Shown here piece after piece: positions 8,717 to 30,924 of a stretch of DNA of 64,000 nt; the first letter of the stretch is position 1; each line of letters opens with the position of its first letter. The DNA is from an uncultured Acidobacteriota bacterium (GTDB lineage: Bacteria; Acidobacteriota; UBA6911; RPQK01; JAPXNP01), in assembly GCA_963777605.1 (NCBI GenBank), contig CAVZRV010000027.1, forward strand, positions 192,001 through 256,000, written 5' to 3'. The notes under the pieces are model-generated. The model had not been told where the DNA came from and made no database searches. It saw only the letters and a list, made by a program, of their open reading frames with translations. A program made the position numbers and the translations under genes.

Positions 8717-10793
8717 TCAATCGCGAACGTAGAGCGAAACGATTTTCGAAGACGGGATCGAGTGCTCTTCCTGGCCCACCACTTCCCTGACGTGGGGAAA
8801 CAGGTCCGGAAAGAACGCCTTCAACTGGGAAACTAAGACGTGCCTGGAATTCACCACCTCGAGCATCGCGCGTTGCGGACTCAACCCCTTGACGTTCCCA
8901 TACATGCAGTAGATCCGAACATCCTCCGAGTCTTCGATGCGGGCCGGCGTATTCTCGTCTCCTCCACCAACTTCACCGCTGTTCCGGGTTCCCGCCTCCA
9001 CCTTGAAATAGTAGATGCGGACACCCTTGGCCTGTCGGATCAACGACTGGGGGTTCCGGGTCACTCGCTCCACGTTCAGCGAGTAAAACGAGATCGGGTT
9101 GCGGGAATTCTCGATCAGGAACTGCCGCCCCATGGCCACCATGGCGTAAAGCCTTCCCCCGGCGTTTCCCGAAAACTGGTATGGCGCCCGGGCGTGCATC
9201 GCGATTCCCTGCCCCGACCGCCAGTCGATCTCACCCCCTACCGAAATGAACCAGAGACCCGGGGAAGCCGAGGGGGCATCCGGCGTTGTGAGGCGAAAGG
9301 TCTCCGAACCGGCGTCTTCACCTTGGCGGCCACGGCCCCGCTTGACTCCGATCGAGGTCAGAAAGCCGGAGACGGAAAAGAGCTGGGTCTTCTTCCCGAG
9401 CGCAAGAGTACCGGTCAACCGGTAGTCCCCGGGAGGCACGAATACCTTGTCGTGAGACCGGATGGCTTTTTCGAATGCCCCTGAGTCGTCCGTCACGCCG
9501 TCACCCCTGGCGCCGAAATCCTTCACGTTGACCGCATTCACATCCTCGAACGAGGGCCTCTTCGACCAGTGCCTGGCCTGGATCTCCGAGTAATCGGGAG
9601 CGCGATCCACATACTTCCATCGCTCCAGATTATCGACTGCCGAGACAGTACCGTTGATCATGCTGAGGCCTTCATCCGTGTGCGAGGAAAACCGTTCGAC
9701 CAGAACCCAGCGGTCCGAAGGAGCGATCGGGCGGCTGTCGGTAACAACGCTCCCTGCTCCCTTTACGTAGGTGTTTTCGAGGAAGACATTCTCGCTCTTT
9801 CGGGTAGAGACGACCGCTCCGCCCCGCATCTGAACGACACAGTCTACCAGGCTGATCCCCGCGTAGCTGGGTTCGGTCGTGAGATCGACGGCTTTCCCCG
9901 AGTTGCTCTCGATCAGGCAACCCACGAGCAGGGTTGGGACCTGGTTCCCGCCATTCGTGTAACGGATCGCCGCCTTTTCCTGGTTCCTGAACCGGCAGCC
10001 GATCAGGATCGGGAATCGGCTCTTCGAGTCCGCGAAGAACCCGTAGTCGCCACCGATCACCTCGACGTTGAAGGTTCCCGCCGCCTGCCCCGGACAGTTG
10101 TAGAGCCCGGCGAAGGCTCCATCCGCATAGATCGTGGAATCCTGCAACGTGCAACCCTGGGATCCGGAATGCTTCAACCCGATGGCCCCGGCGTGGCCGC
10201 GAACATCGATATCGATCCCCATGAAGAAGTGGCCGAAGGAGATGTTCGGCTGCTCACCCGTGCCGTCTCCGAACCAGGTCCGTGCCCAGATCCAGACCGC
10301 GATCTTGGGATTCGAGGGGTCGTCGAAGCCCCTGGCGTCCCGGGACAGCTTCAGGACCGGGCGCTTCCCCCCTTTGGTTGAACCGAGGAGGATTATCTTC
10401 TGGTTCTTGTGCCAGTAGTTGGCAACCTGACCATCCACCTGCCGGGGAGTGTCCAGCTTGTAGTTCTCCTGCTCGCAGGAGATGGTGTCCGAGATCAGAT
10501 ACGTTCCCTCCGGGAAGTAGCAGACCAGTCCGTGATCCCGGGCGTCGTTGACCCCCCTGCGGATCGCTTCGGTGGAGTCTTTCGTGCCACTCGGATCCGC
10601 CAGGTAGGGGAGCTTTGTGACATCGAGGAAGCCGTTGGCAAGCAGTTCGTCTCCAATGTTGACTCCGGCAGGGTACTTACCCTCCTGGCCGTTCCTAGGG
10701 ACAGTCCCGCAAGCCGTTGAAAGGGTTGCAAGGGACAGTCCCCAGAAAGATCAACGAAACCCAGAGCGACACCAATAAACATTTTCGCGTCAT
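8717..10793 (-). pseudogene. Secreted beta-helix glycoside hydrolase/lyase-like protein (Pectate_lyase_3/GH55-like), disrupted by a 34-bp insertion
   Basis: AGGAGG RBS + ATG at 10793 with signal peptide; DVTKLPYLADPSGTKDSTEAI..YFPEGTY and NVKDFGARGDGVTDDS..FVPPGDY repeats; removing 34 bp gives one 681-codon ORF. Confidence 0.8.
10697..10742. repeat. Direct repeat of the 12-bp palindrome AGGGACAGTCCC around a 22-bp hairpin
   Basis: Copies at 10697-10708 and 10731-10742; spacer GCAAGCCGTTGAAAGGGTTGCA forms a stem-loop. Confidence 0.9.
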
Positions 10794-11165
10794 CCCTCCT
10801 CCCTTCCCCGCATTCTAATCCGCTTTACGGATGATCCCCAGCCGAATCGTCGTGACACGTGTAAGCCCCGACTCTCGAGCTCCACAAGACCGGCTATTCT
10901 CTGGACGTTGCCGCCACTCTGACTTCCGGACCGACTTCGGGCTGCCTCGTGCTGCGCAGCGAACGAGATCGAATCGTTTCGAAAATCACGGACGTCAGCC
11001 CGCGGAATCCTGACCCGGCCCCGTGCGCGCAGCCAACGGAAGATTCAATTTTCGAACTCTTTCCCGGGATTGGTCAGGAAGTATCTCACTGGTCGATCCC
11101 TCCACAAACCGGACCCCCGGGTCAACCGACAGAACCGTCAGCTTTTCCTCCAACGGATAAAGCCC

Positions 11166-23745: not shown

Positions 23746-24143
23746 TGGCGCAAAAGGGCGTCCGGCCGGCAAGTGTCGATCCCTTTCCCTTTCCAAGGGA
23801 CACTCCCTTGTTGAACTTATCAACTGTTGGCCGATTGTTGGTCTTGACGCAAGAGATTTACTTGTTCGGATGCAATGTGAGTCTTGATAGGCGAAAAGCC
23901 TTCCGGTGGGAGGAGACGAGGCCGAACGGCCGGAGCCATTGCCTCAAGTCAGCACAGCCAGGGGCAAACGCCACTTCGGACTGACGCCAATCTAACCGGC
24001 TTCAGCTGACAGGAAGACAATCTAAACACCAGAAGAGTGGCTTGTTCGGCTCAACTACACTCACGGATCTTACAACCAGGCTTCAGCTTCCCAAATTTCA
24101 GCGAGAAACGCGATCTTCGAACTACGAGTTCCACACGGCGGGC

Positions 24144-25070
24144 TCACGTCTGAACGAAATTGCTGCGGGGGCCACGAACCGCATAAAGGTTGCCAACCCC
24201 GAGCGGAACCGGTTCTCGGTCGCTCGTGTAGATACCCCTCTGCCGGTACTCATCGAGGGTCCGCTGCACCTCATCTTCATTGCTCACAAGGACCCCCCGC
24301 GTAAACGGCGCAATCGCCTCCCGGTAGCAGCCCCGGGCAAATCCTTCCCGCTCCATCTGTTCAGCCAACTCCACCGGGATCAGCCCATCGTTCTCCTTCG
24401 ATGCCTGCGTCCCCCGCCAATACAGCCGACACCAGAACAACCGCTCGCATTCCTCCGGACTGCCCCCGCCCATCAGTTCCTCGATCGGCATCAGCCAGTC
24501 GTCCCGGGCGTGTCGCCGCATCCAGGCCGACGAGAAGCGCCACTGCTCGGGCCATTTCACCAGATGAGCCCGAAGGGCGTTCAACTCCACGTAAAAGACA
24601 GTCTCGATCAGGTTGCTCGACGTCGTCAACTGGAAGCGATCGGCCCAGAAACGGCCCTTGCGGTTGTAATGCTCGTTGTACCAGCGGGCGTAGGCGGACT
24701 GGATGTTGCGCATCAGTTCGCTGAGGTTGAACAGACGCCGGTTGAAGAGTTCCCACTGGCGATCGTTCCAGCACGAGTAGGGACGGTAGCGGGGATTGGG
24801 ATAGAAGCGTTGGGCGATTTCCAGGAGTCTTCGTCGGGAGAGCTTGCGGTAGGCCTGGAAGCGGACGACGAGGTGGTAGTGGTTGCCCAGGACGTTGAGG
24901 GCGGCGACGGAACAGAAGTAGAGGGAGCAGAAATGGTGGATGAGAAAGATGAGCTGGAGGGCATTTTCGGGTTCCTGGAGGGGATAATCGCCGATATGAC
25001 CGGCGACCAGGCCTCGGACGTGGAACAGGCCTCCGGCAGTGGCGTTGAGGTTGCGCGCCAGACGAGCCAT
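24144..25070 (-). CDS. REP-associated tyrosine transposase (RAYT, Y1 HUH family)
   Basis: LGNHYHLV HUH motif, YARWYN...RKGRFWADRF, YVELNALRA catalytic Tyr, PEQWRFSS; 308 aa from ATG 25070. Confidence 0.88.
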   Translation of the reverse strand: MARLARNLNATAGGLFHVRGLVAGHIGDYPLQEPENALQLIFLIHHFCSLYFCSVAALNVLGNHYHLVVRFQAYRKLSRRRLLEIAQRFYPNPRYRPYSCWNDRQWELFNRRLFNLSELMRNIQSAYARWYNEHYNRKGRFWADRFQLTTSSNLIETVFYVELNALRAHLVKWPEQWRFSSAWMRRHARDDWLMPIEELMGGGSPEECERLFWCRLYWRGTQASKENDGLIPVELAEQMEREGFARGCYREAIAPFTRGVLVSNEDEVQRTLDEYRQRGIYTSDREPVPLGVGNLYAVRGPRSNFVQT

Positions 25071-25296: not shown

Positions 25297-25373
25297 CCAG
25301 GCAAGGAATCTAGGGACACTCCCTGTCGTTCCCTCCCAGGCAAGGAATCTAGGGACACTCCCTGTCGTTCCCT
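25297..25373. repeat. Tandem 38-bp perfect repeat (period 39)
   Basis: CCAGGCAAGGAATCTAGGGACACTCCCTGTCGTTCCCT at 25297-25334 and 25336-25373. Confidence 0.95.
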
Positions 25374-25389
25374 GGCAAAGCGCTTGATT

Positions 25390-30144: not shown

Positions 30145-30924
30145 TCACAACTCTCGATACTCTCCGGCACACTCCCATCGCCGGCAGGTGACGTGCTCGA
30201 TGGGGACTTCGCCGGCCAATGCGGTCGCAAAGCCCGGAACCGAAGGAAGATCCAGCAGGACCCACCTCGGGAGTTCGTTTTCCTCGTCGCCGCCCTCCAG
30301 TAAGGCGGCCGGCTCGCCAGGCCCGCAGGACACGCTGAAACGGTCCAGGGGAAGGGACAGTCCCCGTCCCACCGCTTTGACGAAAGCCTCCTTCCGGGCC
30401 CAGCAGACGAAGAAGGCCGGCTTCCGCAACTCGGGAGGCAGCCCAAGGATCTGCGCGACTTCCATCCGTGAAAAGAACCTTCGGGATACCTCGTCTACGT
30501 TCACGGTTCGGTCGATGCGCTCAATGTCGATTCCAAGCTCCTTGTCCTCAGCCAGCGCAAGCAGAGACACGTTTCCTGAGTGCGACAGGTTGAAACTGAG
30601 CGGAGTCCTTCCGCAGACTTGCGGCTTCCCGTAGAAATTCGTTTCGATCCCGATCCGGTGCGGTTCGATTTCCAGGTACTTCCCCAGTACGGCGCGAAGA
30701 AAATAGCGCCGCGCCACAAATCTCACCCGGTGCTCTTCGAATCGGAATCCCGCCGCGCGCGCGTGCTCTTCGCCGGAGAGGCTTGCGACGTACTGTGCGT
30801 TCAACGCCTGCCCGGGATCGTGCTCAGTGAGCCAGACGTGAACCTCATTTCGCCCCAGGGCCTGCGTACCGGGGGACGTCCGCCACGCGAATGGATCTGG
30901 AACAACTCTCTGATTGTCAATCAT
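30145..30924 (-). CDS. Sfp-type 4'-phosphopantetheinyl transferase
   Basis: YGKP, FNLSHSG, LGIDIE, WARKEAFVKAVG.GL. Confidence 0.92.
   Translation of the reverse strand: MIDNQRVVPDPFAWRTSPGTQALGRNEVHVWLTEHDPGQALNAQYVASLSGEEHARAAGFRFEEHRVRFVARRYFLRAVLGKYLEIEPHRIGIETNFYGKPQVCGRTPLSFNLSHSGNVSLLALAEDKELGIDIERIDRTVNVDEVSRRFFSRMEVAQILGLPPELRKPAFFVCWARKEAFVKAVGRGLSLPLDRFSVSCGPGEPAALLEGGDEENELPRWVLLDLPSVPGFATALAGEVPIEHVTCRRWECAGEYREL

Follow-up and report, generated by a model that had tools for sequence, protein, structure and literature searches.

How a gene came to be interrupted by a duplicated palindrome, with a further hairpin held between the two copies, is the question raised by a site in the DNA of an uncultured Acidobacteriota, a soil bacterium. 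We analyzed a window of 64,000 nucleotides (nt), by which we mean the whole stretch of DNA; the site occupies its positions 10697-10742, where the signal peptide ends in a broken gene of about 680 amino acids (aa); 13.4 kb away lies an intact gene for a Y1 transposase resembling the RAYTs, the transposases associated with repetitive extragenic palindromes (REPs). The site is known from one assembly. The reading that we favor, with a probability of about one half, is that of a recent "mini-array" of one added unit, seeded at a chance copy of a palindrome, which turned the gene into a pseudogene.

The 12-bp unit AGGGACAGTCCC, an 11-bp palindromic core plus A, is present twice on the forward strand, at 10697-10708 and 10731-10742 (34 bp start to start), and the 22-bp spacer GCAAGCCGTTGAAAGGGTTGCA lies between the copies at 10709-10730. 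The copy at 10731-10742 is the one met first by the ribosome and encodes G-T-V-P in the upstream frame, and the copy at 10697-10708 encodes G-T-V-P in the downstream frame. When folded as DNA, the core alone forms a 4-bp stem with a 3-nt loop, the spacer alone a 4+2 bp stem (−5.6 kcal/mol, z = −3.2), and the whole 46 bp a single hairpin (−14.7 kcal/mol, z = −3.7) that none of 200 shuffles equaled. The spacer is an imperfect palindrome (16 of 21 positions match by eye), and the duplicated unit and the palindrome coincide exactly. A 12-bp direct repeat is not by itself rare in this genome: a scan for direct repeats of at least 11 bp spaced by no more than 120 bp gave 1100 pairs (999 non-overlapping, 879 scored, 625 non-tandem). 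A palindromic repeat together with a palindromic spacer was found in this pair alone among the 625 non-tandem pairs. A third exact AGGGACAGTCCC in the window, at 30353-30364 on the forward strand, is single and unduplicated, and serves as a comparison site. The first-pass annotation of this DNA had described a palindrome duplicated around a 22-bp hairpin in the signal-peptide region, and had held that this was not a homopolymer error; both copies and the spacer were located, the spacer folds, and the insert is structured, with perfect 12-bp repeats and a hairpin of its own.

The consequence for the gene can be read from its two frames, both on the minus strand. The upstream fragment (10695-10793) begins at an ATG at 10793, directly preceded by a purine-rich stretch of GGAGG type, and its N-terminus, MTRK followed by a hydrophobic run, is signal-peptide-like. 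This frame reads GGG ACT GTC CCT, 22 more bases, and the second GGGACTGTCCCT one base out of register, and ends after 32 codons at the TAG at 10697-10695. A second frame, one base out of step with the first, runs without interruption from 10750 until its stop codon at 8717-8719 (8717-10750, 677 codons plus stop; P0001), and it has no ATG, GTG or TTG before the GTG at 10438. Both frames are open across 10697-10750. Removal of one 34-bp unit leaves (10793 − 8717 + 1 − 34)/3 = 681 codons including the stop, in agreement with the single 681-codon open reading frame (ORF) from 10793 to 8717 given by the first-pass annotation; deletion of all 46 bp, which that annotation did not mention, likewise restores the frame. 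The remainder of the gene, including the C-terminus, is intact, which suggests that the insertion is recent and the pseudogene young.

Judged by its sequence, the broken gene is predicted to encode a secreted beta-helix protein related to glycoside hydrolase families GH55 and GH28. P0001 matches PF12708 in Pfam in two stretches (E = 1e-22), and 278 of 7999 scored candidates are homologues at E ≤ 1e-3, the best full-length ones being 63-71% identical and carrying source names such as glycoside hydrolase family 55, GH28-related or pectate-lyase-superfamily protein. We aligned the two window fragments with nine full-length homologues (678-685 aa, with signal peptides; alignment A2), chosen from 13 that were fetched; P0003 and P0012 were excluded for a missing N-terminus, and P0005 and P0009 for longer N-termini with upstream starts. 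The upstream fragment aligns with the signal peptides of the homologues, the G-T-V of both fragments falls in the same columns (18-20), and the corresponding position in two homologues reads G/A-H-V/S-P. The extra 11 codons are present in none of the nine, so that the comparison of orthologues proposed in the first-pass annotation bears out, together with the frames, its claim that a gene was precisely inactivated by 34 bp. The alignment further hints at what the gene looked like before the insertion. With 34 bp taken out, the conserved LLDVT block would start at residue 44, and with 46 bp taken out at residue 40; in the homologues it starts at residues 43-44; because this spacing fits removal of 34 bp and not of 46 bp, the ancestral gene most likely carried one copy of the 12-bp unit.

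The Y1 (HUH) gene, RAYT-like and intact, occupies 24144-25070 on the minus strand, of which 24147-25070 encodes the 308 aa of its product. This product matches Y1_Tnp in Pfam (PF01797; 28 bits, cut-off 23), and a phmmer search against PDB sequences returned no match at E ≤ 1. The residues H64 and H66 (H-x-H), Y160 and N164, within the motifs NHYH and Y-V-E-L-N, are invariant in 27 aligned family members. The best fold match of an AlphaFold (AF2) model of the protein (pLDDT 79, pTM 0.76) is 4er8_A, the E. coli RAYT bound to a REP hairpin (E = 5e-5, TM 0.64 on target), followed by the IS200, ISDra2 and IS608 transposases. On the strength of this model the neighboring gene is predicted to have a Y1/HUH fold nearest to that of the E. 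coli RAYT, with the H-u-H motif and the catalytic Tyr in place. Some of its homologues, which lie mostly on contigs of 1-2 kb, are named "REP element-mobilizing transposase RayT" by JGI. The genome of the window itself holds further paralogues, one 69% identical with a stop codon and three at 38-39%.

Short palindromes stand on both sides of this gene. One copy of AGGGACACTCCCT, a hairpin with a 7-bp stem (−5.9 kcal/mol), lies at 23796-23808 on the forward strand, about 340 bp past the 3′ end of the gene; upstream of the gene, at 25297-25374 on the forward strand, are two perfect 39-bp tandem units, each with AGGGACACTCCCT (at 25312 and 25351). The motif of the insertion had been said to differ by one base from the RAYT-flanking AGGGACACTCCC, and AGGGACACTCCC was indeed found at 23796, 25312 and 25351. 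The 39-bp tandem is a recent duplication of a whole unit, unlike the duplication of the core alone at 10697-10742.

We counted related motifs in the rest of the genome, with the reversed sequence as control in all motif counts. GGGACACTCCC is present in 24 copies, compared with 1 in the control, about 10 of the 24 in long ORFs, and the 9-mer GGGACAGTC in 78, compared with 36. Both loop variants of the core occur in one array (C2:2350-2472), and at eight further places in the genome the core stands singly and unduplicated. The GT[AG]G foot of RAYT/REP systems was found at none of the core flanks, which vary. A stretch of about 40 kb (C11:251567-288759) holds nine copies of GGGACACTCCC around the 69% identical Y1 paralogue, which is interrupted by a TAA stop (C11:255163-256074), and an element starting GGGACACTCCCC...AGTGTCCCC in that stretch is common to contigs C2 and C4. 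The best-scoring Y1_Tnp genes of the genome (82 and 77 bits) are outside the window, at C7:1122040-1123535 and C35:248353-258582, among units of a different repeat family, about 68 bp long, that are bounded by CCCTGAAGGGG and CCCCTTCAGGG and present on at least four contigs; this resembles a second REP/RAYT pair, and a more canonical one.

Homologues of the Y1 protein (E ≤ 1e-10) were found in 23 of 41 genomes, including its own, with up to 10 copies per genome. Among the genomes counted is the unpublished G018, on which none of the conclusions depends. In these related genomes, which are not independent samples, GGGACAGTCCC, the exact 11-mer of the insertion site and the form of the core with G in the loop, is abundant in some (G031: 53 copies, control 1; G001: 34, control 3; G017: 31, control 1; G037: 21, control 1) and scarce in G014 (5, control 2). 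The 9-mer GGGACAGTC follows with 238 copies in G031 (control 11), 225 in G037 (control 19) and 188 in G017 (control 12). The copies cluster beside the transposase genes in two of the genomes: 13 of 53 copies of GGGACAGTCCC in G031 and 13 of 31 in G017 lie within 500 bp of Y1 genes, in each genome at four of seven such genes, with about 0.1 copies expected by chance. In G001 the figure is 1 of 34, and in G037 none of 21, where the 9-mer flanks one Y1 copy (L023). The arrays are direct repeats of GGGACAGTCCC, 20-120 bp apart, and at two loci (L022 and L046) arrays on the two sides of a Y1 gene are inverted relative to each other and face each other.

Two sites in G031 suggest how such arrays begin. 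The empty-site comparison was made within genus g12; L037 (rearranged flanks) and L038 (flanks not recovered together) were left out. A 75-bp block with three canonical cores (G031:5226281-5226345), situated between a DinB-like and a hexokinase-like gene, directly adjoins core-like sequence. The block is absent from all five sister genomes searched, and the core-like form GGGACAGGTCCC, exact in G031, is likewise exact in three sisters and diverged in the other two. A four-core array (G031:1479628-1479789) is missing at each of the three sister loci for which an alignment through the site was possible; within this array, one spacer reproduces, over 49 bp and with 100% identity, a part of the neighboring gene that bears a hairpin and lies at a distance of 393 bp. 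Arrays can thus start beside resident core-like sequence and take in other DNA, and these are the two things that the site in the window would require.

Several further features of the relatives touch these arrays. The 49-bp copy and its source (L035:451-499 and 844-892, G031) are centered on the hairpin, in a nucleotidyltransferase-like gene; the copy is preceded by TTTCG, the motif directly before the cores of that GGGACAGTCCC array, which lies upstream of the gene, and the copied stretch ends in TTCG. An intact ORF of FG-GAP type in G001 (L049:360-400; G001:C10:83263-83297) contains two cores 24 bp apart and in frame, and reads GTVPKLLQ and then GTVPRLLA where six homologues (29-39% identity) are shorter; this may be an in-frame duplication of the core within coding sequence. 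Beside one array (L037:597-667, G031) lies an element of about 65-70 bp, of which dozens of copies with 80-99% identity occur in the five sister genomes searched (G017, G037, G069, G070 and G072), either an abundant small repeat or an RNA gene.

On the reading that we favor, the G-T-V-P codons at the end of the signal peptide would have happened to spell GGGACTGTCCC, an 11-bp palindrome that would be the cognate REP-like repeat of the 308-aa RAYT-like Y1 (HUH) clade. The repeat system would have taken this chance copy for a hairpin of its own and seeded an array of two copies in direct orientation. We infer that the Y1 enzyme recognized this fortuitous hairpin while the DNA was single-stranded, cut there and attached one unit of spacer plus core, so that a 22-bp hairpin spacer and a second 12-bp copy were added; the shift of +34 would then end translation after 32 codons and leave a young pseudogene. 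The unit may also be able to leave again. The same Y1 chemistry could remove it and restore the gene, and slippage between the 12-bp repeats around the hairpin could do the same, as with palindromic inserts. The earlier suggestion of a footprint of RAYT activity stands in part: the RAYT-like fold, the motif arrays beside homologues of the protein, and the seeding and capture seen in relatives speak for it, while catalysis at this site is presumed and no source of the spacer was found.

A number of observations weigh against this reading. The score of the Y1 protein against the NCBIfam equivalog REP_Tyr_transpos, 28.1 bits, is below the cut-off of 80. The three copies of AGGGACACTCCCT flanking its gene share one orientation and have C in the loop; the form with G in the loop, GGGACAGTCCC, is only weakly enriched in the genome (10 copies, control 2), and two of the 10 are the site itself. 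Repeated GGGACAGTC was found at 5 of the 19 Y1 loci of relatives (L019, L022, L023, L025 and L028) and at none of the other 14, and the three closest homologues of the Y1 protein (L016-L018, 61-64% identity) are among those without it. Most arrays of the relatives, like the 39-bp tandem of the window, look like duplications of whole units with their flanks, unlike this site. Furthermore, Y1 transposition of the IS200/IS605 type makes no duplication.

The orphan spacer is the main weakness. The 22-mer is unique in its own genome, where no source was found with up to three mismatches; in 75 other genomes of the order there were four matches at three mismatches, compared with three in the reversed control, and there was no match in viral contigs and none in plasmids. 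Apart from the site itself, the genome matches the spacer over at most 15 nt, at C27:327580 (about 0.25 expected by chance). Likeness to local sequence was not significant (91 of 1000, 50 of 1000 and 42 of 200 shuffles were as good), and the spacer resembled the flanking sequences of 340 core-like sites no better than chance (300 of 300 shuffles as good). An exact match was found once in 596 billion bases of reference genomes, in the Erythrobacter contig NZ_SOSI01000004.1 (L014:601-622). We rejected it as a source, as it is in frame in a sensor-kinase-like ORF with no core nearby, and about 0.07 such matches are expected by chance.

Without any enzyme, instability of the palindrome might have produced the same structure: a chance 11-bp palindrome would have stalled replication or broken, and repair by template switching, or by re-annealing through microhomology on the 12-bp unit, would have copied in 22 bp from elsewhere, the likeness to the transposase repeat being incidental or a matter of the hairpin only. 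The 46 bp do form one quasi-palindrome in which the duplicated unit is exactly the palindrome, and the perfect templated copy of nearby DNA in the G031 array could also have arisen by copy-choice. Yet the eight other single cores of the genome have stayed unduplicated, no template for the 22 bp was found, the spacer palindrome is too imperfect for a fresh snap-back product, and it would be a coincidence for the event to have struck the very motif that is cognate to a transposase family represented nearby; we consider this explanation unlikely. The same coincidence, that the target is exactly the palindrome of the Y1 clade, burdens the idea that the insert is the remnant of an insertion sequence (IS) or a miniature inverted-repeat transposable element, with terminal inverted repeats of about 10 bp and a target duplication of 12 bp, whose nearly precise excision left 22 bp of its termini. 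A 12-bp direct repeat flanking an insert with inverted-repeat halves (16 of 21 positions) would suit such a history, as would the anatomy reported for the remnants of Tn10 after nearly precise excision. However, the terminal 10-mers were nowhere found in the genome as a pair that faces inward between duplications, nor near contig ends, and the unique 22-mer has no relatives in the 75 genomes of the order beyond the reversed control, and we hold this origin to be very improbable. Two further candidates were rejected. Off-target spacer integration of CRISPR type, or by a casposon, is at odds with a 12-bp repeat and a 22-bp spacer, far below the sizes usual for such systems (no search for cas genes was made). 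A type IIS restriction reading of GGGAC was dropped because the cut geometry does not give a 12-bp duplication.

An artefact of assembly or consensus, or a minor variant fixed in the assembly while the real gene is intact, has to be considered in an assembly of 53 contigs with 5.68% contamination, the more so as independent sequence covers none of 10708-10769. A search of sequencing runs gave four metagenome runs that contain 5-26% of the words. The Logan contigs of these runs extend over 10353-10707 and 10770-10952, with a depth of about 2x, and not one crosses the insertion. A screen of the window for frameshifted gene pairs, as a gauge of assembly noise, returned many ordinary neighboring genes. 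Two Logan contigs of run X1 match the flank 10395-10707 without differences, and the insert is structured, with perfect 12-bp repeats, its own hairpin and an architecture like that of the natural arrays in relatives; we regard an artefact as quite improbable. Searches for an uninterrupted allele of the same species agree in finding none. The exact 22-mer across the junction of core and flank was in 0 metagenome contigs; a protein-guided scan gave five loci, the best 76% identical, of which the two checked (76% and 73%) lacked the core at the site; a search for a shorter protein gave 12 matches, none above 79% identity. P0003, at 87% the nearest of the homologues, is truncated and does not reach the insertion site, and the assembly holds no second copy of the broken gene. 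That the interruption is functional, through programmed recoding (a +1 shift at CCC_UAG, 10700-10695, or a hop of 34 nt) or through a phase switch with gain and loss at a useful rate, we regard as scarcely credible. Both frames are open across 10697-10750, the upstream ORF ends in CCC UAG G, from which tRNA-Pro would pass into the long frame by slipping +1, and the putative take-off and landing codons are identical, 34 nt apart in a strong mRNA hairpin (−51.8 kcal/mol over 131 nt, z = −2.7). CCC TAG G is prone to +1 slippage, and a +1 slip at 10695-10700 would give the full protein with 11 extra residues. Against recoding, the segment is absent from all nine aligned homologues, no stimulatory element was identified and the genome shows no second example; the codon after the first copy is UGC, so that no stop follows the putative take-off codon, and the UAG comes only after the second copy, which is not the arrangement of gene 60. 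As to the reversible ON/OFF switch suggested in the first-pass annotation, the most that recombination between the repeats could do is to revert the gene; it could not re-create the insertion, and re-insertion of the same 22 bp is without a known route.

If the mini-array reading holds, its consequence for the organism is ordinary, one more pseudogene. Its wider interest is that the palindrome would be the signature repeat of a nearby family of hairpin-cutting transposases, and the site may therefore offer a view of how these repeats increase in number. What preceded the insertion, seldom accessible where repeats lie between genes, can here be read from the frame and the homologues: a single core gave rise to two that enclose a new hairpin. 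Together with the two cases in g12 this gives a concrete model. A bolder version, which we advance tentatively and consider rather doubtful, is that the site preserves the elementary step of repeat multiplication, the precise joining of a 34-nt unit of single-stranded DNA (hairpin spacer plus core) at an existing core hairpin, and that the enzyme can reverse it. Arrays would then grow unit by unit and could take in foreign hairpins, the 49-bp fragment in G031 being a case in point. Since no base is lost or gained in Y1 chemistry, excision of the unit by the same enzyme could make the gene whole again, and the site would be an enzyme-driven, precise on/off insertion in coding sequence.

Among known systems, the remnant of Tn10 left by nearly precise excision, with its own precise excision, was reportedly described by Foster and colleagues in 1981. 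As reported, it is like this site in that a short palindromic insert lies between direct repeats, where slippage would restore the gene; it is unlike it in that no parent element was found here and the repeat is itself a palindrome and the motif of a transposase family. The peel-and-paste transposition of IS200/IS605 elements shares the enzyme fold and the use of hairpin sites in single-stranded DNA, but in those elements the transposase is carried inside, with distinct left and right ends on either side of it, and transposition makes no duplication.

REPtrons, the pairs of REP and RAYT (E. coli TnpA-REP, PDB 4ER8; REPIN-RAYT of Pseudomonas), are similar in that 4ER8 is the best fold match of the Y1 protein of the window, and in that the Y1 gene is flanked by short palindromes that are also dispersed in the genome, with inverted flanks in relatives. 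They differ in several respects: the window protein has 308 aa and is below the NCBIfam cut-off for RAYTs, its clade is multi-copy (up to 10 per genome), the core is a perfect 11-bp palindrome without the GT[AG]G foot, the arrays are direct with variable spacers and not inverted doublets, and the copy number is low (24 in the genome). A RAYT is characterized, in the available part of Bertels et al. (2017), as a single-copy, domesticated gene; here there are paralogues in the same genome and as many as 10 copies in relatives. The pairing of the 308-aa Y1 clade with GGGACAGTCCC is apparently undescribed: the literature matches listed for the motif strings were all unrelated to bacterial repeats, and supplementary tables may hold such structures.

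Atypical TnpA-Y1 classes have been described in Acidobacteria and Planctomycetes (Quentin et al. 2018, PMC6006769). In the portion of that paper available to us, class 3 has Y----Q, NHVH and a CnGA foot, whereas the window protein, with NHYH and Y-V-E-L-N, is nearer the pattern of class 2; the motif strings were not found in two of its supplementary files. How REP-type palindromes spread is still unsettled, and the same portion says only that a part played by the transposase "has been proposed". It also reports REP insertions inside genes, the reported cases being in frame. The site at 10697-10742 is like these in carrying a REP-type palindrome in coding sequence, and unlike them in that its unit is 3n+1 and breaks the gene, and that the state before the insertion already held one core.

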